The position numbers and the translations under genes were made by a program. Below, one piece after another: positions 3,351-64,000 of a stretch of 64,000 nt of DNA. The stretch comes from Rhodospirillales bacterium (lineage in GTDB: Bacteria; Pseudomonadota; Alphaproteobacteria; Bin95). Under the pieces are notes generated by a model. It was given only the letters and a program-made list of their open reading frames with translations, was not told where the DNA came from and did no database searches. Each line of letters begins with the position of its first letter. The stretch's first letter is position 1. The stretch covers positions 576,001-640,000 of the forward strand of contig JAYQLI010000035.1 in assembly GCA_038143065.1 (NCBI GenBank), read 5' to 3'.

Positions 3351-4464
3351 ATGGCAAGGAGTAGCTCAAAAGCGACGTCAGTAGAGGAAATCGATGAAGA
3401 TCATCCTCGCTTACAGACGACATGCCTAGAACAAGATGCTCCAGAACGACAATTCATCGAAGCGTATAATCAGCGCCGCTTGCATCATGCTTGGCTCCTA
3501 TGTGGCCCTAAAGGAACGGGCAAGGCAACGTTTGCTTATCGGGCTGCAAAATTCCTGCTAGCAGAAGAAAAAACAGAAATTGGTGGGCTGTTTGGTTCCG
3601 CAGTACCTCCAGAAACCTTAGATCGATCTTCGGATGACCCTGGTTGTCGAAGGGTTGCTGCTGGGTCACATGCGGATTTGACTACATTGGAACCAACAAA
3701 AACAGGTGGGCAAATTATTGTTGAAACAGCGGATAAACTTGCGGCAGCTCTGAGATTAACAGCCTGGGGAGGGATCTTGGAGAGTTGCAATTATTGATGC
3801 TGCGGATGATTTAAATATCTCGGCAGCTAACAAACTTTTAAAACTAATCGAAGAGCCGCCAACAAACACTATTCTGTTTCTAATTTCACATAACCCGGGA
3901 CGTTTATTACCAACTATCAGGTCTAGATGTACTAGAGTTACATTTAATACGCTGAGTTCCGATGCAATAGCCAGGATTCTAACTTTGCGTAGGCCAGAAA
4001 CCTCGGGTGAAAATATCTCCTCCATTATTGAATTGTCGTCCGGGTCAGCTGGCCGTGCTCTGGCATTGTTGGATGGCGGCGGAGCAGAGGCAATTAACCA
4101 ACTAAGCCAAGTGCTCGCCGGTAGACATGGGGCGGGTGTTTTAGCCGCAGAAGGATTGGCAGCATCCCTAAACCGTAACCCATTTCAATATAATGTTGTA
4201 ACAGACAGCTTGATATCTTGGTTAGTTTTAGCGGCAAAACCTCCTTTAGAAGCAGAGTCGGAAGTCGGATTGCCAACTGATATGGTTAAGTTGGCGAACG
4301 CCGCTTCAGTCTTAGGCCCTAAACCCTGGATTGAGCTGTATGAACACGCTACATACCGATTTGAGAGAACTAAAGCTGTCAACCTTGACCCAGCGCAGAC
4401 GCTCGTAGATATCTTAGCTCGCATACAAGCGCTTCTCGCACGTTCCGAGTTGCGTGGTTCTTGA
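3351..4464 (+). CDS. holB: DNA polymerase III delta' subunit (frameshift near 3770)
   Basis: HHAWLLCGPKGTGKATFA; second frame RVAIIDAADDL..LLKLIEEPP..LLPTIRSRC continues into ORF 3985..4464. Sits between tmk and metG. Confidence 0.9.
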
Positions 4465-4505
4465 AACAAATTTTGGCTTTGGCCTCATTAAAAGGAGCTG
4501 GCGGC

Positions 4506-6055
4506 ATGACTGAGCAGCCGCGCTACTACATTACCACACCTATTTATTACGTTAATGACGATCCGCACATCGGTCATGCCTACACCACGTTAGCGTGTGA
4601 TGTGCTTGCGCGTTTTAAACGTCTTGATGGGTATGATGTTCACTTTTTAACAGGAACTGATGAACACGGTCAGAAAGTCGAAAAGGCTGCTGAAGCAGCA
4701 GGCGTAGACCCACAAGCCTTTACCGATGATGTTTCTAAAAGGTTTCGCGACCTTCTTGGAGCGATGAACTTTTCAAACGATGATTTCATTCGAACCACAG
4801 AGCCACGCCATATCGATTCAGTTCAAGCTATCTGGCAACGACTAATCGACCGTGATGAGATTTATCTCGGTGCTTACGCTGGATGGTATGCAGTACGTGA
4901 CGAGGCGTTCTATGGTGAGGGCGAGCTTACAAAAGACCAAGCAGGGCAGCGTCTTGCGCCCACCGGCGCACCTGTGGAATGGGTAGAAGAACCAAGTTAT
5001 TTTTTCCGCTTATCTGCCTGGCAGGATCGTCTTTTAAGGTTTTACGAGGAAAATCAAGACTTTATTGCGCCAAATTCGCGTCGAAATGAAGTGATAAGCT
5101 TTGTGAAGAGCGGCCTTCAAGACCTTTCAGTATCCAGGGTTAGCTTTAAATGGGGGTTCCTGTTCCTGGTGACGAAGCCCATGTGATGTATGTTTGGCTT
5201 GACGCATTAACAAATTACATCACCGCAGCCGGCTTCCCCGATACAGAATCAAATAGCTACAAGCGCTACTGGCCTGCTGACCTTCATATGGTCGGAAAAG
5301 ACATTCTCAGATTTCATACGGTCTATTGGCCTGCTTTTCTGATGGCTGCAGGTTTAGAACCACCCAAGCGAGTATTTGCGCATGGATGGTGGACTAACGA
5401 GGGGCAAAAGATTTCAAAATCTTTGGGAAATGTAATAAGTCCTTATGATCTGGTGGATCGGTATGGCTTAGATCAAACCCGCTATTTCCTTCTTCGTGAA
5501 GTGCCATTTGGCAATGACGGTGACTTTTCAAGAAATTCGATGATCAGTCGCATGAATAATGAGCTTGCTAATGACTATGGAAATTTAGCCCAAAGGGTTC
5601 TTTCAATGATTGCAAAGAATCTGGGCGGCGAAGTGCCCGAACCGCAAGACTTTACCCAAGAAGATAAAGAGCTTTTAGACGCCTCAAATTCATTGCCAAA
5701 AGTTATTCGGCCACTGATGGACACTCAAGCATTCCATGAGGCATTGGAACGTATTTGGGTGGTGATCAGGGCATCGAACGCATATGTGGATCATCAGGCA
5801 CCTTGGGTTTTACGAAAGTCAGATCCTGCCAGGATGGGTACAGTATTGTACGTTTTAGCTGAAACTATTCGGCGACTTGCAATCATGACTCAGCCGTTTA
5901 TGCCAGATTCATCAAGAAAAATGCTTGATCAACTTTCTATCCCGGACGAGGAAAGAACAATCAATGCTGTTTCGAGCGTTAAACTTTCACCAGGAATAGT
6001 TCTGCCAAAACCGGAGGGTATATTCCCAAGGTATATCGACGAGGAAAACGCTTAG
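4506..6055 (+). CDS. metG: Methionine--tRNA ligase (frameshift in G-run near 5152)
   Basis: YITTPIYYVN, HIGH, TGTDEHGQK, YVWLDAL, GKDILRFH, KISKS. Confidence 0.96.
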
Positions 6056-44994: not shown

Positions 44995-47475
44995 ATGAAA
45001 CCATTTTTATCTTCAGCTTTTAAAATTACCTTGCTTTCTGGTTTTTTAGGCGCGCTGATTGCAATCTCCTTTGCCATAATTCTTTCCGAGGATATGGCAG
45101 AAACCTTCCTGATCATGCTGTTTTAGCAAAATACATCCCCCAGATAACAACACGGGTCCATGCTGGTGATGGAAGGATTCTAGCCGAATTTAAAAGAGAA
45201 CATCGACTATTCGTGCCAATAGGAGAGATCCCAGACATAGTTCGAGTTGCGTTCCTCTCTGCAGAGGATAAGGATTTTTATACTCATCCGGGAATTGATG
45301 TTCAGGCACTTACAAGAGCAGTTTTTCTAAACCTAAAATATTTAGCAACTGGTCGCCGATTAGTTGGTGGCTCCACAATAACTCAACAGGTTGCTAAGAA
45401 TTTTCTTTTAACCAATGAGGTTTCATACGAGCGGAAAATTAAAGAAGCAATTCTGGCATTTCGTATAGAACGAGCGCTCACAAAAGAGCAAATTTTTGAA
45501 TTATATTTAAATGAAATTTATCTCGGTGAAGGAACGTATGGCGTTGCTGCGGCAGCAATGACATACTTCGGCAAATCACTGACCGATCTGTCAATTGAAG
45601 AAGCTGCATATCTTGCAGCTTTGCCAAAGGCTCCCAGTAATTATCACCCAATCCGCCAGAATGCCGCCGCCATCGGGCGTCGCAATTGGGTACTAGGCCG
45701 AATGGCAAAAGACGGCTGGATAAGCCAAACTGAGGCAACAAGTTCTAGCGCATCCCCTTTGACCATTACAGGAAGACCAAAGCAAGAACGAGTAATTGCA
45801 TCTTGGTTTTCTGAAGAGGTTCGTCGAGAATTAAAAAATTTATATGGCGAGACTAGTTTATACGGCGGGGGAATGTCAGTCCGTGCAACCATAGATCCCA
45901 AATTACAACATATGGCAGATACGGCATTGGCTGATGGTTTAGAGACCTATGACCGCCGTCACGGCTGGCGTGGCGCAATCTCTACCCTCCCCTTAGATGA
46001 AAACTGGTTTGATAGTCTTAAAAAATATAAGCCCCCTCTCGGCATTCGAGATCGTCATATTGCAGCCGTCATAAGAACAACTCCAAAAGTTGCCTACATA
46101 GGGCTTCAAGACGGGACTTATGGTAGTATCCATTTTGAGGATCTAAAGTGGGCTCGCAAACGCCTCAAACGACAGAGAATTGGCCCCTATCCTAAAAAGT
46201 GTTTCAGACGTTCTAAGCCCAGGGGATGTAGTCACAGTTAGAGAGTTACCGAATATTCAAGAGGATATTCCTGACCTACCTAGAAGATATTCACTTGATC
46301 AAATCCCAAATATAGACGGTGCTCTCGTTGCAATCGATCCTCATACTGGGCGGGTTCTTGCCATGTCTGGAGGATACTCCGCTGACCGCAGCCAATTTAA
46401 CAGAGTTACACAAGCCAATCGCCAACCAGGCTCGGCAATTAAACCATTTATATACCTCTCTGCTCTAGAAGCCGGACACACACCAGCAACCCTGATTTTG
46501 GATGCACCAATCGTAGTAAATATCCCTGGTTATGGGCTTTGGAAGCCCCAAAATTATAGCGGGAAAATCTATGGTCCAAGTCCGATGCGCATTGGCTTGG
46601 AAAAATCACGCAATCTGATGACCATTCGCCTAGCTGAATATATAGGTATCGATAAAATTATCAGCACCGCAGATCGTTTTGGACTTGGGCAGAGAATGCG
46701 TCCTGAACTTGGCTCCGCCCTTGGCAGCGGTGAGGTTACGTTATTAGAACTAACATCGGCTTACGCAATGATAGCAAACGGAGGGCTTAAGATTTCTCCG
46801 TCTTTCATTGATACGGTTCATGACCGGAATGGAAATCTGATTTTTAGGCATGACAATCGTAAATGCCAAGAATGTATTGGTCCCAATGCAGATCCCTTAA
46901 TGCCCCGGAACTCCCAAATGAAAAAGAGAGAGTTGCGGATCCTCTTTATCGCTATCAACTCGTTTCAATGATGCAAGGTGTTGTTGAAAACGGAACTGGG
47001 AGAAGAGTTAAGACTTACAGGTCGACCACTAGCTGGAAAAACTGGAACAACTAATAAATCGTTGGACGCTTGGTTTGTTGGTTTTTCCTCGAACCTTACG
47101 GTGGGGGTATTTGTTGGATTTGATCAGCCAAAAACGCTCGGCCCCAGAGAAGGAGGCGGAAGCGTTGCTGCCCCTATTTTTGGGAGATTTATGCGCGAGG
47201 CTTGGCCTATCCTACCAGGCGCCCCATTTAAAACTCCACCCGGGCTAGAATTTGTCAGAGTTAACCGGCTTAACGGCCTGCCAGCAAAACAAGGCGATAA
47301 GAATACAGTCTTAGAAGCTTTTTTACCTGGAACTATACCCTCTGCAAACGACAATGTAATTGGGGCCGGTCTCAATGAAAATCTTGGCGAAATGATTCCA
47401 TCGATTTTATTTGACGAAGACGGTGACGATGAAGTTCGCGAGCAAGACATCTCAGTTCAAGATCGTACCAATTAA
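44995..47475 (+). CDS. mrcA: Penicillin-binding protein 1A (about three frameshifts)
   Basis: AEDKDFYTHPG, GGSTITQQVAKN, RKIKE, RQPGSAIKP (SxxK), SRN, KTGTTN. Confidence 0.93.
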
Positions 47476-52801: not shown

Positions 52802-53966
52802 TTAAACCCCTTCGTATTGCCCTAATTCTGCTCTACGTACGATTGCCCAACGATATTGCTCAGGCCATAGAGCAAAGGCGTCTTCTTGCTCTAATGCTTC
52901 TGCCGCGTGGAGCGGCCAGAAAGGATTATGCATAAGTTCACGACCAATGCCGATTAGATCGGCTCTTCCAGCGGATAAAATATCTTCCGCTTGCTGAGGA
53001 TCAACGATACGCCCAACTGCCATTGTGCCAATGTCTGCATCTCGGCGAATTGTTTCTGCATACGGGACTTGGAAGCCTAGAGGTCGTTGCCCACCCTTAG
53101 GTAAAGGACGACCATCATCTTCAGCACGAAACGCTGGAGCGCCAGAAATGCCGCCTGCAGAGCAATCGATCACATCCACCCCTAAGGGATTTAAGTTCTT
53201 TAGCAAGTTTAACTGAGTCCTCGAGACACCAGCCGGCCGTATCAACCGCCGATACACGGAAGAAAAGTGGGAGATTGTCAGGCCATACTGCACGGACAGC
53301 TTCTGTTACCTCAAGCGCAAATCGCATTCTTCCAGCAAGCTCACCTCCATATTGATCATTTCTCTGGTTCGCTACGGGAGAGAGAAAACTATGGATCAAA
53401 TACCCATGGGCTCCATGAATCTCTATCACTTTAAAACCGGCCATTGCAGCGCGCTTTGCTGATGCAGCAAAATCCTCTACTAGGCTGGCAATCTCTCCCT
53501 CTGATAATGCGCGAGGGGTTTCCCATCCATCAGCAACAGGAACTGCCGATGGTGCTACTGTTTCCCAACCGCTGTCGCCCCAACTTGTGTCCCCTACCGA
53601 TACAGGTTTACCACCTGCCCAGGGTGGAGACGCAGAGGCCTTTCGACCAGCATGTGCAATCTGCAATCCCGGCACAGAACCCATCTGCTCTATAAAATTG
53701 GTTGTAGGTTTTAATGACTCTGCTTGCTCATCAGTCCAAATACCTAAGCACTTGGGTGTAATTCGTCCACGTGGCTCTACTGCTGTTGCTTCTGCAAAAA
53801 CCAACCCAACTCCACCGCGAGCAAACGTGGATAGGTGAGCAAACTGCCAATCTGAGGCAAGACCACTATTTGCGGAGTACATGCAAAGTGGAGATAGCAC
53901 CACGCGATTGGGCAGAGTAACACCGCGTAGTTCAAGCGGGCTAAAAAGTTTTGTTGTTTTTGACAT
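52802..53966 (-). CDS. NADH:flavin oxidoreductase (Old Yellow Enzyme, YqjM/NamA-like); frameshift near 53185
   Basis: NRVVLSPLCMY, QIAHAGRKAS, EIHGAHGYLIHSFLSP, GRELMHNPFW. Confidence 0.92.
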
Positions 53967-54131
53967 TTAAGCCTCCAAGTGCATCGTTGTTTAAATCCGT
54001 GTTCTTACAGTACGGCCATCGCCCATTTTAGGTGCGCTTTTCAAACAGGAGTAAAGTTTGCATTGGAGTAAGAATTCCCAGCCACACAAACTAAGCAATA
54101 AAGAGAAAGGTAATTCTCTTTATTTTACATT

Positions 54132-55686
54132 TTATTCCCATTCTATCGTTCCAGGTGGCTTTGAAGTTACATCGTAAGTCACTCGGTTAACGCCTCCCAC
54201 CTCATTAATTATTCGAGTTGCAACCCGGCCTAAAAATTCCATTTCAAACGGATAAAAATCCGCCGTCATCCCATCTGTCGATGTTACAGCCCGCAAAGCT
54301 AGTGCACTTTCATATGTACGCTCATCCCCCATCACCCCTACGGTTGATACAGGCAACAATACAGCAAAAGCTTGCCATATTTCATTGTACAATCCAGCCT
54401 TGCGTATCTCTTCAAGATATATGGCATCAGCTTTTCTTAGGGTTTCTAAGCGACCTTGCGTGATTTTCCCTGGAATTCTTATTGCTAGGCCAGGTCCTGG
54501 AAAGGGATGACGCCCCACAAAAGCATCTGGTAATCCCAACTCACGTCCAAGATCGCGCACCTCATCTTTGAACAACTCTCTCAATGGCTCTAGCAACTGC
54601 AAGTTCATACGCTCAGGCAGCCCGCCAACATTATGGTGGCTTTTAATTGTGACACTGGGCCCACCATCGAAAGATACGCTCTCGATTACATCGGGGTATA
54701 AGGTTCCTTGAGCGAGAAAATCTGCTCCCACCAATACGTTTTGCTTCTGCCTCAAAAATTTCGACAAATAGCCGTCCAATGGTCTTGCGCTTTACCTCTG
54801 GATCCGAAACACCATCTAAATCTCCAAGAAATTTACTTTCTGCTTCAACATGATGCAGCGGAATATTGAAGTGTTGTCTAAATAATGAAACTACCTCTTC
54901 AGCTTCCCCCAATCGGAGCATGCCCGTATCCACAAATATGCACTGTAATTGGTCTCCAATAGCTTCATGGATAAGCACTGCTGCTACAGCGCTATCTACA
55001 CCACCAGACAGGCCACAAATTACTTTCCCGTCGCCGACCTTTGCGCGGATACGAGCAATTTCCTCTTCCCTAAATTTTGCCATTGTCCAGTCACCGGAAC
55101 AAAAGGCGACATTTTTAACAAAATTGCTTATAAGAGCGGCCCCATCTGGCGTATGCACAACTTCTGGATGGAACTGCACCCCAAAATACCCAAAGGCCTC
55201 ATCTGCGATAGCGGCATAGGGTGCGTTAGGCGTTTTAGCAATAACTTTGAAGCCATCAGGCAAAGCTGAAACCGCATCTCCATGGCTCATCCAAACCTGA
55301 TATTTTCCACCAGCCGACCAAACTCCATCGAACAAAGCTGAATTCTCGACAACCTCAATCTGCGCGCGGCCAAACTCACGTTTTTCTGAATTAGTAACAA
55401 GCCCTCCCAGCTGATGAGCCATAGCCTGCTGGCCATAGCAAATACCCAAGACCGGAACGCCTAAATTGAAAACACATTCATCCGCTTGGGGAGCCGATGC
55501 ATTAGTTATGCTAGAGGGTCCGCCTGAAAGAATAATCCCTTTTGGATCATATTCTTTTAGCGTTTCTTGAATAACCTTGTTGAAGGGCCAAATCTCGCAA
55601 TAAACACCTGCTTCCCGTACCCTTCGCGCAATTAATTGAGTTACCTGAGAACCAAAATCGACAATAAGAATACGATCGTGCATCAA
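54132..55686 (-). CDS. guaA: GMP synthase, glutamine-hydrolysing (frameshift near 54740)
   Basis: [42 protein letters not shown]. Confidence 0.97.
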
Positions 55687-55696
55687 AAATCTTTCA

Positions 55697-57241
<1,545 letters not shown>

Positions 57242-57925
57242 TTATTCAAACTTTCTAAAGCCCGTAGCTACAAGGTACATTTCAGCGGAATCAGAGCGGC
57301 TAGCTGGCGGCTTAGCGTGCTTAACTTCTGAAAAATCCTTTTTTAAAAGATCCAATAATTCACTTGGCGCACCGCCTTGAAAAACCTTTACGGCGAATGT
57401 CCCACCTGTCCCAAGTAATTGGGCAGCTACATCATAAGCAGCTTCGGCCAATGCTCCGATGCGAAGCTGGTCAGTGCGCTTATGACCTGTGGTAGAGGGC
57501 GCCATGTCGGATAAAACAGCATCAGCTAGACCGCCAAGAGCCTGGGATATTTTGCCAACCGCCTCATCCGAAAAGATATCTAACTTCAGGATTGTAGCTC
57601 CATCGATTGGATCTACATCCTGTATGTCGACCCCAACAACAGAGCCTCCATTAAGCCTTTTAGCGATTACCTGAGTCCAACCACCCGGAGCACACCCAAG
57701 ATCAACGAACCGACCATTGGGAGATAAAATATTAAAACGAGTATCAAGTTCTGAAAGCTTGAACGCAGCCCTGCTCCTATATCCCTCTATCTGCGCCTTT
57801 TGAACGTAGGGGTCATTGAGTTGCCTCTGCAACCAACGGGCGGATGCATTTGATCGCCCGCGTGCGGTTCTAACTCGAGTTGCTAGCATTCGTGAACCAT
57901 CACCACGCCGGTTTCCTCTAGCCAT
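57242..57925 (-). CDS. rlmE: 23S rRNA Um2552 methyltransferase
   Basis: WLQRQLNDPYV, YRSRAAFKL, DLGCAPGGW, LSDMAP, KPPASR..E; likely start ATG 57925. Confidence 0.95.
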   Translation of the reverse strand: MARGNRRGDGSRMLATRVRTARGRSNASARWLQRQLNDPYVQKAQIEGYRSRAAFKLSELDTRFNILSPNGRFVDLGCAPGGWTQVIAKRLNGGSVVGVDIQDVDPIDGATILKLDIFSDEAVGKISQALGGLADAVLSDMAPSTTGHKRTDQLRIGALAEAAYDVAAQLLGTGGTFAVKVFQGGAPSELLDLLKKDFSEVKHAKPPASRSDSAEMYLVATGFRKFE

Positions 57926-58287
57926 TAGTTTCCTAAATCCTGAGTAATTGGCGGGATTCAGATGAAGATCATTATCATCACAGGCCGCCAGAAGACATAC
58001 TACTTTTGAACAGCCCGTCTGTTTTTCACACGACATGGACCAACCCATCAACAAGATAACGTTTCTCATGCCTGTGCTCGTTGATAATGGAGCTAGAACC
58101 AAAAAGACCTCCAAATCCATACTCACTGTCACTTTTGGTTCTTGCAAGTTTTCGTAATTTCCAAAATAGGGCAGTCATAAATTGTTTGCGAAAATTACAG
58201 TCGGCTTGCGCTTGGCTATACCATCGTTTCCTCGGGTACAAAAGCATAGATCAAAATGAAAAATCCCATAGAATCAAAGGTTAAATA

Positions 58288-58302
58288 TTCACATTTTGTG
58301 AA
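58288..58302. promoter_or_regulatory. Perfect inverted repeat TTCACA-TTT-TGTGAA, candidate operator for the cytochrome locus
   Basis: Seen directly, 75 nt upstream of ATG 58378 in the divergent intergenic region. Confidence 0.4.
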
Positions 58303-58377
58303 GTAACGAGCTTTCGTCCTAGGCAGATGGGTGTTAAGCTTATGCGCAAATTTGAATCTTAGTGATGGAAACGCGCC

Positions 58378-59262
58378 ATGAGACTCTCATTTTCCACTTT
58401 AGTGTTGGCTGGCCTGTTAGGGATCATGTCATTGACATCTACAGGTGCGATTGCTGCTAGCAATGTAGGTCCAAAAAAATGTCAAGAATGCCATCGAGCT
58501 GAGCATGATGTATGGAAAGGTAGCGCGCATTTTAAGGCTTTCCGAGGTGCTCACAAAGCGAAAGGTGCTAAGGAAATAGCCAAAGCATCAGGTGGCGGCA
58601 AATCAATGAGACGAAACCAGGTGTGTGTGGCATGCCATTACACCGAAGTAGGCGGAAAGCCAAAAGCAGGCCCTTCTTGTGAGAGCTGTCATGGCGGCGC
58701 CTCAGAGTGGCTTTCGATACACAATGATAAAGCAATGCCGAAAGAGCAACGATTAGCTGCTGCTAAGGACGCTGGGATGATTCATTCCTCAATGCTTTTT
58801 GAAATTGCTCAAAATTGTAATGGCTGCCACACAATGCAGAATGTAGACCCTGCAATGGCTGGGAAACTCATTGATGCTGGCCATCCTATCAATGGTGATT
58901 ACGAGTTAGTTAAGTATAGCCAAGGTCAAGTTCGGCATCGTTTCTACCCTCCTGACGTCACCGTAAACCAAGAAATGTCGAAGTCCGAATTGGCTAATAT
59001 GTTTCTAACAGGTCATGCTGTTGGTCTGGTTTATGCGACTAACGGTATCGCTAAGTCCGATAATGCCAAGTACAAGGCCGAAATGCAGAAGCGGGTAGAT
59101 GCAGCCACCAAGGCTCTAGGAGCAGTAAAAGATCAAATTCCTGCTGCTAATAAGCTTCTATCAAGCCCTAACGAAGGTAATGCTAGAAGTTTTATTACTG
59201 AAATCACTGGTAAAGATCTATCAGCCGCAGTAGGTGCGATGTTGCCCAGCAGCTACAAGTAA
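58378..59262 (+). CDS. Exported tetraheme c-type cytochrome (c554-like N-terminal domain plus helical C-terminal domain)
   Basis: Sec-type signal peptide ending AIA; four CxxCH motifs: CQECH, CVACH, CESCH, CNGCH. Confidence 0.9.
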   Translation: MRLSFSTLVLAGLLGIMSLTSTGAIAASNVGPKKCQECHRAEHDVWKGSAHFKAFRGAHKAKGAKEIAKASGGGKSMRRNQVCVACHYTEVGGKPKAGPSCESCHGGASEWLSIHNDKAMPKEQRLAAAKDAGMIHSSMLFEIAQNCNGCHTMQNVDPAMAGKLIDAGHPINGDYELVKYSQGQVRHRFYPPDVTVNQEMSKSELANMFLTGHAVGLVYATNGIAKSDNAKYKAEMQKRVDAATKALGAVKDQIPAANKLLSSPNEGNARSFITEITGKDLSAAVGAMLPSSYK

Positions 59263-59428
59263 GGTTTTTAGGGAATTAACCTAGTGCCTCTTATTAAACG
59301 CGAGCTCAAGACCTTAAAACCAAGCTGCAGGTTACCTTTAGTTTTGGGATTTTGTCTTACTGTTGAGGGATCCGGAAAAATATTTGTTAGTTCGCATCAT
59401 CACAGCTTAGGATCTAAAGGAGGACGGG

Positions 59429-61069
59429 TTGGCAGTTGCAACTAGGTTAACAAGGCCTCAACGCTGGGACAGGCCTTTTGACCCTGCGATGTCGCAGAGT
59501 CGACTAGATTTGTTGATGCAGAATTCTGTTATTGATGCGATAGATTCTGAAGCTTTCCCTAAGACAATTCCTCTATCGGGAATTATCGAAAATGATACTA
59601 GATTATTACAATTTTCGGCCGGAGAAATTGTTGTACGTGAAGGGGACTATGGAAATTCAGCTTTTTTGGTACTTTCCGGTAAGGTTCAGGTTGTAATTAA
59701 TCCTCCGCTATCTGCAGAACAAATTGGACGGGAAAACACACCTCCATCTCGATTTAGCAACGCTGTCGCTCAAATATTTAGACGCAGAACGGCACCTGAA
59801 GTTCGTGACCTCAATCGTTATGGACAATTAGGTCTTTCAAACTCGGATCAAACTTCGAATTCAGATAAACAGGCTGTTTTCCTTCAAGATTTTCCGATGA
59901 TATTAAGGGATAGAGACACGGCCGAAATTGGAGAAGGAAGTCTTTTTGGAGAGCTTGCTGCTCTTGGGCGTACACCCCGGTCGGCTTCAATTATTTGCAG
60001 TGAAGACGCTGAACTTTTGGAAATTCGCTGGCAAGGCCTCAGGGAATTACGCAGATTTGATGCTGGATGGCGTCGCCAAATAGACGAAAATTACAGGAAA
60101 AATGCTCTTTTAGCGCACCTTCAGGATACCCCTCTTTTCTCAAAGCTTTCGTCGGAGACTCTCGCTACGATAGCATCAGCTACATTATTTGAGACATATG
60201 GGTCTTTTGATTGGAGTTCTTCTTTTCAGCGGTCTGGAGCAGAAGATGCCCTGCGCAGCGAGCCCGTTATTGCTCGAGAAGGTGAGTATCCCGATGGCCT
60301 ACTCTTAGTGAGAGCAGGTTTTGCGAGAGTTTCCGTCAAGCAAGGTTCTGGGGAGCGAACGCTAACATACTTGGGAGCTGGGGACACATTTGGACTGCAT
60401 GAGTTATATCACGGCTGGCAGGGCTCAGAAGCGCTAAATGGAACAACTCTTAGAGCAATAGGCTATGTAGATGCTCTGAGGGTCCCAACCCACATTCTAG
60501 AGGAACATGTTTTCCCTACGCTTTTATCTGCACCTGACAGTCTTCTAGATTTTGCGCGACGTCCGTTAGCGGAAGACGCAATGCAAGAATGGTTAGTTGA
60601 GCAACGGTTCATCAACGGAACAAAAGGTATGCTCATTAACCTCGATAAGTGCGTGAGGTGCGATGATTGTGTGCGTGCGTGTGCCTCTACGCATGACGGG
60701 AACCCTAGATTTATCCGACACGGTAAGACTCACGATCACTGGATGGTAGCAAACGCCTGTATGCATTGTGCTGATCCAGTTTGCATGATCGGGTGCCCAA
60801 CCGGGGCGATCCATCGATCACTTACTGGAGGATCCGTTGTCATAAATGACGATACATGTATCGGTTGCGGAACGTGCGCTAATTCTTGTCCCTACAATAA
60901 CATTAGATTGGTGGAAATTAGAGATTTAGCAGGTCGGCCTGTTCAGGATGAAGCAACCGGAACACCAATCCGCAAAGCGACAAAATGTGATTTATGCTCA
61001 GGAATTCCAGGCGGCCCTGCATGTGAACGGGCCTGTGCTCATGGCGCGCTACAGCGTGTTAGTTTTTAG
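59429..61069 (+). CDS. Fusion of two cyclic-nucleotide-binding domains and a four-[4Fe-4S] ferredoxin
   Basis: AAAGGAGG SD before TTG. CNB1: VVREGDYGNSAFLVLSGKV..FGELAALGRTPRSAS. CNB2: IAREGEYPDGLLLVRAG..LGAGDTFG. Sixteen Cys in four groups of DmsB/NrfC type. Confidence 0.9.
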   Translation: MAVATRLTRPQRWDRPFDPAMSQSRLDLLMQNSVIDAIDSEAFPKTIPLSGIIENDTRLLQFSAGEIVVREGDYGNSAFLVLSGKVQVVINPPLSAEQIGRENTPPSRFSNAVAQIFRRRTAPEVRDLNRYGQLGLSNSDQTSNSDKQAVFLQDFPMILRDRDTAEIGEGSLFGELAALGRTPRSASIICSEDAELLEIRWQGLRELRRFDAGWRRQIDENYRKNALLAHLQDTPLFSKLSSETLATIASATLFETYGSFDWSSSFQRSGAEDALRSEPVIAREGEYPDGLLLVRAGFARVSVKQGSGERTLTYLGAGDTFGLHELYHGWQGSEALNGTTLRAIGYVDALRVPTHILEEHVFPTLLSAPDSLLDFARRPLAEDAMQEWLVEQRFINGTKGMLINLDKCVRCDDCVRACASTHDGNPRFIRHGKTHDHWMVANACMHCADPVCMIGCPTGAIHRSLTGGSVVINDDTCIGCGTCANSCPYNNIRLVEIRDLAGRPVQDEATGTPIRKATKCDLCSGIPGGPACERACAHGALQRVSF

Positions 61070-61080
61070 AAGGAAACGCT

Positions 61081-61908
61081 GTGGTGCACACCCCTAAATC
61101 AACTTTATCGTTTGGATTGACCTTTTCTCTTGTTGCCGTGTTATGCCTTATAGGTCTAGCCTATTTTTCTCACCAGGAAATGTTGAACCTAAGTGACGCC
61201 TCTTTTGTGACTGTCTGGATACTTCTTGGGATAATGTTTTCACTAGGTATTTTTAATATACGAAAACGTATGTCAGCTCTTCCTCTAGGGCGAGCCGCTT
61301 ACTGGCTGACGTTGCATGTAGTGCTAGGTTTCTTTGCAGTCGGCACATTTCTTGTTCATACTAATTATGTTTGGCCTACCGGAGTATATGAACAGCTGTT
61401 GGCTAGTCTTTTCTGGCTCACAGCAGTCTCAGGGATGTTAGGTTGGCTGTATCAGAGAGCGATACCGCGGCGGCTATCCAGAATCGGGTATGAAGTTATC
61501 TTTGAGCGCGTCCCTGCTGAAATTGCACATCTTCGTGAAGAAGCAGAAGCGGCTGCTCTTGAAGCAGTAGGTAACAGTGGTGAACCAACCTTGGGCCGTT
61601 TCTACTCAGAAACATTAGATTGGTTTTTTCAGCGCCCACGTTTTGCCATATCGCATCTCTTGGGAACTGGTGCTGCTGCTCATTGGCTAGAGCATCGTAT
61701 CGCTGCTGTACGAAGATTGTTAGGTTCTGCCGAACTAAAAGCACTTGATGAAATCGAAAAAATAGCTCAACTAAAGATTTCAGTAGATGCTCACTATGCA
61801 ATTCAACGATCACTCAAACTTTGGGTTTTTGCGCACGTTTTGCTGACTTCAGCAACCCTCTCATTGTCTGTTTGGCATCTCATTTTGGTTCATGTGTACG
61901 CTAGATGA
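61081..61908 (+). CDS. Integral membrane protein with two His-x13-His helices (putative diheme cytochrome b)
   Basis: About 5 TM segments; HVVLGFFAVGTFLVH and HVLLTSATLSLSVWH. Confidence 0.7.
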   Translation: MVHTPKSTLSFGLTFSLVAVLCLIGLAYFSHQEMLNLSDASFVTVWILLGIMFSLGIFNIRKRMSALPLGRAAYWLTLHVVLGFFAVGTFLVHTNYVWPTGVYEQLLASLFWLTAVSGMLGWLYQRAIPRRLSRIGYEVIFERVPAEIAHLREEAEAAALEAVGNSGEPTLGRFYSETLDWFFQRPRFAISHLLGTGAAAHWLEHRIAAVRRLLGSAELKALDEIEKIAQLKISVDAHYAIQRSLKLWVFAHVLLTSATLSLSVWHLILVHVYAR

Positions 61909-63973
61909 CTGATACAACAAACCGATACGATCACGATAGCTCGCCTTATGAACGACCTAATCTTCCCTTCCGCTGTGGGCGAGAGGCGGCGTTTGGGAAA
62001 CCATGCCCCAGAGGGCCCACTCTTAATGGAGCTTGTCAAGGGATCTCAGACTGTACCCCGTTTCAAACGAGAAAATCAGTAGTAGACGAAGAGACTGGCG
62101 AACAACGTGAAATATTACGCTGGGAGTGCCGGAGACCCACATGGGCAGGAGGCCCTTGCTCACAAGGCCCTAAACCGGATGGAACTTGTTCTTGTACCCA
62201 CCCACCCTGCGCGCCTCGCCCCACCATCCGTCGTCAACGTGGACGATGGGCTCTTTTGGCTGTAGCTGCGGTTTTTGCCCTTGCCATTGCACTAATGGGT
62301 TTTGGAGGTGCACCTACGCTACCAAGTTCTATCGATCCCGGACAGCTATCTGGTAAACACGCCCAATTTACGGCAGCTGAGGGTTGCGTGGCATGTCATG
62401 ACAGCCATTCCACCTCGCTCGTTGGATGGGTAGGAGCGGTATTTAGTAAAAATACAATTTCTGACTCCTGTGTTTCATGCCATTCCTTTGGTAAAGAACC
62501 GGTTATTGGAAATGAGCCTTCGAAAAATGCCTTGTTGTTCGCAGCCCATAACTGGAATTTTCCAAATAATCCCGATGCGCTAGCCACTAATTGTCAGGGC
62601 TGCCATACAGAGCATAAGGGTGAACTAGCATCGATTACGCCGTTGGTAGATGGTCAGTGTGCGGGTTGCCATACTGAAAAATTTGACAATTTTTCAAAAG
62701 GACATCCTGAGTTCTCAAATACTTTCCCCAATCAAAATCCGCGCACAATAAAATTTTCTCACAGTAATCACTTAGAAGAGTATTTCGCAGATAGTCGTTA
62801 CAAAGAGCTGGCGCCTAAAGAAAATTGTGTGTCATGCCACACTAAACAGGAAAATGGACGACTGTTACCCGGGAGTTTTGATACTGGGTGTGCTGGTTGT
62901 CATGAGCAAGCCATTCGAGAACAAGGCTTTGCTGTAATTGGTTTGCCTGAACTCAGTGATCCTACACTAACAGCAGATGGCGCTGAAACATGCGGTTTCT
63001 CCCAGGCAGAAATAGAGCCTGCAAAAACTCTAATAAGTGCAATTTCTGACTCTATAAGTTCACTTAATTCAGTATCGGAAGCATTTGAAAGAAATAACTC
63101 CTCAGATCTCCAAACAGCGGTAACTGCAGCCGCAGATACCGCGGACGCGCTCGCTGAAACTAAAACTGAACTTGAGGAGGCTTTTGATCGAGAAGAAGCA
63201 GTTTCGCTGGAATACCTTCCCGAAGTTTTATCATATCTTTTAAAACATCCTTCAGATGATTTAGACGCTTACAGCGAGGATGTTGCAAGCCTGCTAATTG
63301 AGCTTGCTCAAAATGGATATGAACCTCTATCGGAATTGCTCGAAGCGACGGGAGGCTCCGCGAACAATCTTTTGGCGGGTCTCTCTGATGAGCTCGTACA
63401 GCGTGTGGTCTGTGCCTGGACCGCTAACCAGGAATACGAAGCACTTAGAGATCCAGAACCAGGTAAAGGCTGGCAAGCCAGCCCTTATCAAATCAGTTAC
63501 ATGCCGACTGGTCACTCGGATAGCGTTGTTAGAAATTGGATTGAATTTTCTCTTAGTGAGGAGGTTCGTGAGAGTGATTTGGGAAATCAAATTACTGAAA
63601 AAATGCTTCATCCTGCGGATGGACCAGGACGCTGCTTTAAGTGCCATGTTGCCCCGGTATCAGAATCTTCTTTACCGACCGTATCTTGGAAAATTCCCAG
63701 TGAAGACCTGCGACCTTTCACCGAGTTTAATCATACCCCTCACTTGAATGTCTTAAACGTTGGTTCGGGCTGCGCGACTTGCCATCAAAGCGTGGAAACT
63801 TCAAAAGTTACCTCTGGAAAAGAAAAAAAAATTCTCCTTCACACCCTAAAGAATTTGGACCAATTAAAAAATCTGTTTGTAGCGATTGCCATAAAGAAGG
63901 TGGTGTGCAACAAACCTGTGTAACTTGTCATCAATATCATACCGAGCCAACTATCAGAAAACGACAAAATTAA
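61905..63973 (+). CDS. Membrane-anchored decaheme c-type cytochrome with Cys-rich N-terminus (frameshift in A-run 63823-63831)
   Basis: Eight CxxCH in ORF 61905..63923 (CVACH, CVSCH, CQGCH, CAGCH, CVSCH, CAGCH, CFKCH, CATCH) plus CSDCH and CVTCH in ORF 63779..63973; single TM after RRQRGR. Confidence 0.88.
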
Positions 63974-63984
63974 GGAACGACGAC

Positions 63985-64000
63985 ATGACGAACCAGAGCT
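63985..64000 (+). CDS. Probable start of the next gene in the operon (MTNQS.., truncated by the window end)
   Basis: TAAGGA SD-like sequence overlaps the decaheme stop; ATG at 63985. Only five codons are visible. Confidence 0.4.

Follow-up and report, generated by a model that had tools for sequence, protein, structure and literature searches.

What might a protein do that joins two cyclic-nucleotide-binding (CNB) domains to a ferredoxin, and with which partners would it work? This question is raised by a gene in a 64,000-nucleotide stretch of DNA from a Rhodospirillales bacterium, the whole of which we call the window. A preliminary description had presented the gene product as an unusual class of cyclic-nucleotide effector. 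The operon has, however, already been described twice, as PCC4 (PMC5566968) and as Ptd (bioRxiv 10.1101/2023.11.21.568154). By gene order and motifs, the gene is the Fe-S gene of a PCC4 subgroup II cluster and at the same time ptdE of ptdABCDEFG. PtdE thus joins a described but uncharacterized family, with architecture and operon known in outline.

Architecture of PtdE and its place in the PCC4/Ptd cluster

The following features lie on the window:

58378..59262, + strand: ptdD, tetraheme cytochrome c554-like, N-terminal hydrophobic signal-like segment (4 CXXCH; PF13435; 1BVB, E 1.1e-9)
59418..59423, + strand: Shine-Dalgarno sequence AGGAGG, 5 nt 5′ of the ptdE TTG start
59429..61069, + strand: ptdE / PCC4 Fe-S gene, CNB1-CNB2-4x[4Fe-4S] ferredoxin (546 aa, TTG start, predicted cytoplasmic)
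59486..60118, + strand: CNB1, about residues 20-230 (fold match of residues 20-225 to 8jsk, Z 14.9)
59702..59917, + strand: family-wide insertion of about 70 aa in CNB1, with conserved E124 and R126
59945..59986, + strand: CNB1 phosphate-binding cassette FGELAALGRTPRSA, intact (residues 173-186; G174, E175, R184 and an extra conserved R181)
60119..60523, + strand: CNB2, about residues 231-365, degenerate pocket
60389-60406, + strand: FGLHEL of CNB2 (residues 321-326), no cassette Arg
60620..61066, + strand: four-cluster ferredoxin, 16 Cys, HycB/HydN/DmsB fold
61081..61908, + strand: ptdF / PCC4 inner-membrane protein, ferric-reductase-like (two predicted b hemes, H79/H93 and H252/H266)
61905..63973, + strand: ptdG, membrane-anchored multiheme cytochrome with N-terminal 9-Cys domain (ORF ends at 63923)
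63985..64000, + strand: start of a further ORF, cut by the window edge, candidate ptdA, as expected from the two nearest loci

The CNB-CNB-ferredoxin architecture proposed in the preliminary description was confirmed by Pfam, motifs and fold matches. PtdE scores 88 bits against cNMP_binding (PF00027, cut-off 27.5) and 33.1 bits against Fer4_11 (PF13247, cut-off 26.2); as claimed, no helix-turn-helix (HTH) family is found among its 15 Pfam hits, and the C-terminus is a ferredoxin. The motifs named earlier are all present: the CNB1 cassette at residues 173-186, FGLHEL at 321-326 and 16 cysteines in four groups at 408-536, to which one non-conserved Cys190 is added. The claim that Tat and Sec signals are missing was likewise borne out, since the top 19-residue hydropathy of 1.21 argues against a transmembrane (TM) or Sec segment and the N-terminus lacks a twin-arginine motif. 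An AlphaFold2 model based on an alignment of 107 sequences (mean pLDDT 91.8, pTM 0.86) resembles CNB folds at residues 20-225 (Z 14.9, rmsd 2.4, 129 aligned) and 218-380 (Z 15.6, rmsd 2.6, 139 aligned), and its C-terminus resembles the HycB-type ferredoxin 7qv7 (Z 14.3, rmsd 3.9, 135 aligned).

Two details had to be revised. The insertion in CNB1 (about residues 92-163) has the size reported before and is family-wide (in 78 loci, segment 91-162 spans 64-97 aa, with a median of 70), but it sits in a strand-connecting loop and not in the barrel core; by PKG alignments, we read its probable site as the β4-β5 hairpin. In the AlphaFold2 model it is mostly ordered, with pLDDT below 50 only at 136-145. 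The assignment to the DmsB/NrfC type holds for the 16-Cys pattern and the fold, but cytoplasmic HycB/HydN types are at least as close by sequence and are among the closest ferredoxins (7qv7_A, E 4.6e-15).

PCC4 was described by He et al. (2017) as a porin, 4-, 5- and 10-heme cytochromes, and a membrane protein with an SGXXG and two WX3HX13H motifs. In subgroup II, a PF13247 gene precedes that of the membrane protein; subgroup I lacks the Fe-S gene and keeps the membrane protein and the cytochromes (PMC5566968). PtdF of the window carries all three motifs (W75/H79/H93, S117GMLG, W248/H252/H266), and both His motifs occur in 76/80 best hits of the loci analyzed here, the best 80 of at least 561 PtdE relatives found in a scan of GTDB contigs. 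A simple hydropathy scan at threshold 1.6 gave four segments in PtdF; the PCC4 membrane protein is described with five TM helices. A 2024 preprint names ptdABCDEFG, states the function of PtdE as unknown and reports high transcription of ptdAB in Alphaproteobacteria of oxygen-deficient zones (bioRxiv 10.1101/2023.11.21.568154). Both papers leave PtdE without an assigned function, and a term search for "cAMP" found no occurrence in the main text of He et al. Within open-licence PMC and bioRxiv, a search of the PCC4 and porin-cytochrome literature did not return the Ptd preprint, so the two names appear unconnected. Membership of our locus is based on gene order, motifs and one named homologue: the pentaheme neighbor in L001, one of the two nearest loci, matches the cytochrome c552 5ZE8, in agreement with the PtdA homologue named in the preprint.

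The order in the window is ptdD-ptdE-ptdF-ptdG, with ptdF starting 11 nt past the ptdE stop. PtdD is probably periplasmic, judging from its N-terminal hydrophobic segment. The ptdG ORF contains 8 CXXCH, and two more lie in another frame (stop at 63971-63973) past an A9 run at 63823-63831; 62/75 clustered PtdG ORFs have 10 CXXCH. The frame break at the A9 run is probably a sequencing indel, as is also suggested by several housekeeping genes of the window that are likewise split. Overlapping or adjacent ORFs that suggest assembly indel errors were seen at 4461-6055, 45213-47475, 52802-57235 and 63823-63831, and the broken genes are, by inspection, presumably guaA-, guaB-, metG-, penicillin-binding-protein- and flavin-oxidoreductase-like. 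The first 115 residues of PtdG (61905-62250) hold 9 Cys, near-invariant in orthologues, ahead of the TM anchor and are probably cytoplasmic. This domain matched no Pfam family and gave no usable match in the ESM Atlas; possibly it is an unrecognized Fe-S or Zn domain.

The window ends 27 nt after ptdG, and ptdABC (pentaheme cytochrome, porin, FAD/NAD(P) oxidoreductase) are absent from it. L001 and L002, the two nearest loci (70% identity), have these genes downstream, and in our locus they would sit past the window edge if the same order holds. A promoter and terminator scan of 57900-64000 gave counts no higher than in shuffled sequences (6 vs 7.8 and 6 vs 6.0), and a search upstream of ptdD and ptdE with consensus boxes for FNR, CRP and σ54 gave only one FNR-like site with two mismatches. 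Upstream of ptdD, positions 58288-58302 form a palindrome, TTCACA-N3-TGTGAA, that is not a canonical CRP or FNR box.

Partners of PtdE and the predicted path of electrons

Profile searches placed ptdF in 79, ptdG in 76, ptdD in 74, ptdC in 64, ptdA in 49 and ptdB in 47 of the 80 loci, many of which end at a contig edge. Where at least 9 kb were available on both sides (n=34), C, F and G were found in all 34, D in 32, and A and B in 25 each; the porin is thus present in 25/34 well-flanked loci. PtdE is encoded immediately 5′ of PtdF in 79/79 loci showing ptdF. This pattern points to PtdC-E-F-G as the core of the cluster. PtdC combines FAD, NAD and 2Fe-2S domains with an N-terminal hydrophobic segment; the porin candidate has no Pfam match. 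Cytochrome c maturation genes (ResB, Ccm) adjoin the ptd clusters of L021, L043, L049 and L066.

Gene fusions point in the same direction for PtdF. Besides the E-F fusion recorded in one PCC4 genome (PMC5566968), a set of 270 proteins contained clear fusions in P0097, P0123, P0124, P0149 and P0247, and P0161 has a partial one. The PtdC profile detected no PtdE-PtdC fusion in these 270 proteins or among the longer homologues (11 hits). For the L001 pair, a complex of PtdE and PtdC was predicted with an ipSAE of 0.52 against 0.00 for the best control, with at least 80% of contacts shared between runs and a partner pLDDT of at least 84, which weakly supports the pairing. The mark applied to ipSAE is passed by 116/157 solved and 2/215 mismatched pairs, and passes at or below 0.60 comprise 18 solved pairs and both mismatches. 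Weighing against a direct contact, a pass in this low range is more often false than true, and a reductase paired with a ferredoxin may reach the mark through its similarity to structures already solved.

A sister operon joins the two modules on one chain. On the Sphingobium plasmid AP027337.1 (L081:7687-13999), a pyridine-nucleotide flavoreductase is fused to a CNB-CNB-ferredoxin with both CNB pockets intact. The fusion is followed by a cytochrome-b-like protein in which the His motifs of PtdF recur, then by a multiheme cytochrome and by a phosphodiesterase annotated as cpdA. A plasmid search returned only two distant Sphingobium records, at 28% identity. The four genes of the redox operon are annotated as hypothetical only.

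The preliminary description had proposed an electron-transfer subunit of a kind that normally partners a catalytic subunit. Electron transfer is supported, but the partner is most likely PtdC plus PtdF and not an enzyme of the DmsA/NrfA type. PtdE might instead be a β subunit of the DmsB/NrfC type that serves a molybdo-enzyme, hydrogenase or nitrite reductase encoded at an unlinked site, which would agree with its 16-Cys pattern and fold, as in ArrB, NrfC/PsrB and HycB. Its scores, however, are far under the curated cut-offs (DmsB 53.3 vs 214.1, NrfC 34.1 vs 377.6, HydN 48 vs 260 bits), and no catalytic subunit of a molybdo-enzyme, NrfA or hydrogenase recurs as a neighbor in the 80 loci. From 393 de-duplicated flanking ORFs of at least 140 aa, 246 and a few others, the less distant ones, were scanned with Pfam; the only enzymes of this kind among the 246 were a molybdopterin oxidoreductase in L010 and a xanthine-dehydrogenase-type subunit in L011. 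We regard this reading as highly improbable.

Based on cofactors, gene linkage and fusions, we consider it probable that PtdE wires PtdC to PtdF on the cytoplasmic face. Its four [4Fe-4S] clusters would relay electrons between PtdC, a membrane-anchored FAD/NAD(P)H/2Fe-2S protein, and the diheme-b protein PtdF, which would then exchange electrons with the periplasmic decaheme PtdG and further with the tetraheme PtdD or the pentaheme/porin pair PtdA/B. He et al. modeled PCC4 as an inward conduit to quinone (PMC5566968). By likeness to ferric reductase/NOX and Fre-MsrQ systems, we prefer an outward flow from NAD(P)H.

PtdE is not an obligatory wire, since subgroup I does without the Fe-S gene (PMC5566968). 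The same observation favors a reading in which PtdE is a sensor: its clusters would respond to how reduced the PtdF/PtdG chain is, this signal would be integrated or relayed by the CNB (and FHA) domains, and bulk electrons would pass directly from PtdC to PtdF. Fusions of FHA domains to PtdE (P0125, P0127, P0156, P0236 and others) were seen in at least 9/38 scanned relatives and in 9/11 long forms, for which they are the most common addition; in L074, the FHA domain is fused to PtdC (L074:7855-9894). Together with genes for Ser/Thr kinases or phosphatases near L047, L055 and L064, these fusions suggest a second, phosphorylation-based input, and they also agree with a sensor, as does the precedent of CyaC, a membrane cyclase that responds to the respiratory redox state (PMC10463352). 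Against a sensor, Pfam finds no output domain (HTH, kinase or cyclase) in PtdE, and in the sister operon reductase and module form a single chain, whose gene precedes that of the membrane cytochrome. Four-cluster subunits of the HycB/DmsB type, which PtdE matches, moreover serve as wires in solved complexes. We judge the sensor quite unlikely. Some PtdE forms (P0172, P0179, P0180, P0197 and P0203) carry an N-terminal extension of 300-350 aa without a Pfam hit in the top five families listed.

Nucleotide pockets, cyclase neighbors and a possible switch

A homologue search gave 5194 hits (7999 candidates scored), and a search of 50% representatives gave 571 matches at E ≤1e-30. Among the best 150 of these 571, the CNB1 cassette is covered by 137, and CNB2 was counted in 142. 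The G-E-R residues of CNB1 are intact in 104/137; the other 33 lost E only (16), R only (12) or two or three residues (5). In CNB2, G-E plus Arg is intact in 1/142. One intact and one degenerate pocket, as noted in the preliminary description for the single protein, is thus a family trait, but one from which 33/137 relatives with a damaged CNB1 depart. Orthologue conservation of the cassette, on which that description had made its reading depend, was found in the genome loci (best 80 of at least 561 relatives): G174 in 79/79, E175 in 78/79 and R184 in 78/79. Cysteine conservation is a partly circular measure here, since Cys patterns were used to find these loci. The two distant sister proteins P0268 and P0280 kept both cassettes, so that the loss of the CNB2 pocket looks specific to the PtdE subfamily. 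P0268 also has an N-terminal 2Fe-2S/4Fe-4S (Nqo3-like) domain ahead of CNB-CNB-ferredoxin.

G174, E175 and R184 align to PKG cassettes without gaps. The residue after the cassette Arg is Thr or Ser in 78/120, as in the aligned PKG cassettes. CRP also has a Ser at this position, so this residue does not fix the ligand. Among the 120 closest hits, invariance is weak evidence in general, because many columns are invariant there. The equivalents of G, E and R contact ribose and phosphate in CRP and PycTIR (PMC11224242).

We searched all six frames of the 80 loci with a cyclase profile. Class III cyclases were found in 13/80 loci, a raw count over 608,520 non-ptd bases, and Pfam confirmed those of L041, L048, L062, L075 and L078. 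Eight of the 13 lie within 240 bp of the ptd cluster. Seven of these belong to Pirellulales and are divergent from ptdC (L040:5530-7335, L041, L042, L061, L063, L069, L079), and the eighth is 23 bp from ptdG in L048. In the tree, the seven loci fall into one 11-row clade (SH-aLRT 99) and L048 stands apart, which suggests about two origins for the adjacent cyclases. No cyclase match was obtained within the 64-kb window, and none is adjacent to ptd in the 38-row clade that holds it; in L025 of this clade, a PDEase_I match (E 1.4e-7) lies directly 5′ of ptdD. Cyclases and phosphodiesterases near some loci thus support a cyclic-nucleotide (cNMP) reading of PtdE.

The best PDB hit of the L040 cyclase is Cya2 (2W01). 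Its Asp aligns with E488 of Cya2, KYG is common to both, and all seven Pirellulales cyclases share this Asp and KYG. Exchange E488K turns Cya2 from a guanylate into an adenylate cyclase (PMC5995499). The Cya2-like residues in all seven point to cGMP as the putative product in the Pirellulales clade; the remaining cyclases have mostly adenylate-cyclase-like or unclear motifs. A pyrimidine-cyclase reading of the Pirellulales enzymes, prompted by PMC11224242, was dropped, since the best match of L040 is Cya2 and the acidic and KYG positions agree.

Because of its cassette and these neighbors, CNB1 would rather likely bind a 3′,5′-cyclic purine nucleotide (cAMP or cGMP), with CNB2 as a structural domain. 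Alternatively, PtdE could act in this complex as a constitutive Fe-S wire, with the CNB pair as a scaffold or with CNB1 as the sensor of another ligand. Several domains of the CRP/FNR family indeed sense ligands other than cyclic nucleotides. The family-wide loss of the CNB2 pocket, the 33/137 damaged CNB1 cassettes and the lack of a nearby cNMP enzyme in most loci agree with this alternative. Moreover, E175 and R184 are within the 32/376 non-ferredoxin columns conserved at ≥84%, but R181, E198, W201 and G203 equal or exceed them, which fits a constraint by fold or interface. A scaffold is harder to reconcile with a G-E...R at canonical spacing in 104/137 relatives and 78/79 loci, though the twin domain lost its own, and with cyclase and phosphodiesterase genes adjoining ptd or sister clusters in separate lineages. 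On balance, we consider the constitutive wire rather unlikely, although less so than the sensor.

We return to a PtdE controlled by cyclic nucleotides. Binding would shift CNB1 relative to the ferredoxin or to a partner protein, and the electron flow would thereby be turned up or down; based on the compact model and on analogy, we rate such tuning about evenly for and against. Taken together, we propose, with a probability of roughly 45%, that PtdCEFG could form a transmembrane conduit from NAD(P)H to the periplasm that is switched directly by a cyclic nucleotide on its Fe-S subunit, with cGMP as the putative signal in Pirellulales that carry a Cya2-like cyclase divergent beside ptdC. The 33/137 distant relatives without G, E or R in CNB1 weigh against this proposal, and so do the adjacent cyclases with their two or so origins, the 67/80 loci without a cyclase and the lack of ptd-adjacent cyclases in the clade of the window.

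If CNB1 acts as a gate, a membrane electron-transfer chain would be under post-translational control by cAMP or cGMP. Together with the Sphingobium-type operon, this would make a widespread class of cNMP effectors, one that consists of redox complexes of the respiratory type and not of transcription factors, channels or kinases: the cluster occurs in Proteobacteria, Planctomycetota, Verrucomicrobiota, Nitrospinota and others, and its carriers include the cultured or completely sequenced Hwanghaeella grinnelliae (L074) and Uabimicrobium amorphum (L047). In open-licence PMC and bioRxiv, we found no cNMP-gated Fe-S mechanism and no PCC4/Ptd mechanism beyond the two descriptive papers, nor the four-cluster count, the pocket asymmetry, the C-E-F-G core, the cyclase linkage or the gating in print.

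Relation to known systems

Our analysis links the PCC4 and Ptd descriptions. The PtdE of the preprint (bioRxiv 10.1101/2023.11.21.568154) is likewise a CNB and 4Fe-4S protein from the same phyla; its gene has that of a tetraheme cytochrome on one side and, on the other, those of a ferric-reductase-like membrane protein and then a decaheme cytochrome. It is described there with two clusters, whereas we count 16 Cys, that is four clusters, and two CNB domains, one of them degenerate; the accessible text of the preprint does not discuss the pockets. The gene order DEFGABC was seen in 18/80 loci, including the nearest ones, and the ABCDEFG of the preprint in 9/80. With PCC4 subgroup II, the analyzed loci as a set share the 4-, 5- and 10-heme cytochromes, a porin candidate in most well-flanked loci, the membrane-protein motifs and the upstream PF13247 gene. 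Unlike the inward model of He et al., our reading centers on the reductase, which with 34/34 is a steadier partner than the porin with 25/34.

The HycB/HydN/DmsB/NrfC subunits have the same 16-Cys pattern and fold (7qv7, Z 14.3; 6cz7, Z 12.6; 2vpw, Z 11.7). PtdE differs from them by its fusion to two CNB domains, by the lack of a molybdo-enzyme or hydrogenase partner and by scores under all family cut-offs. The tandem CNBs of PKA-R and PKG and CNB-enzyme fusions such as Rv0998 are the best Foldseek hits and share the CNB fold and the G-E...R cassette. In PtdE, however, the packing is another one (TM-score of about 0.2 on the query), the 70-aa insertion is present and an Fe-S wire is attached. 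From CRP/FNR regulators, PtdE differs by ending in a ferredoxin in place of an HTH.

In ferric reductase/NOX and Fre-MsrQ systems, a flavin domain passes electrons from NAD(P)H to a bis-His diheme-b membrane domain, and some NOX enzymes have a second-messenger domain that gates them. The Ptd cluster resembles these systems in its flavin NAD(P)H module and its predicted bis-His diheme-b membrane protein. It differs in that the parts are encoded by separate genes, with a four-cluster ferredoxin and a CNB pair placed between them and periplasmic multiheme cytochromes downstream.
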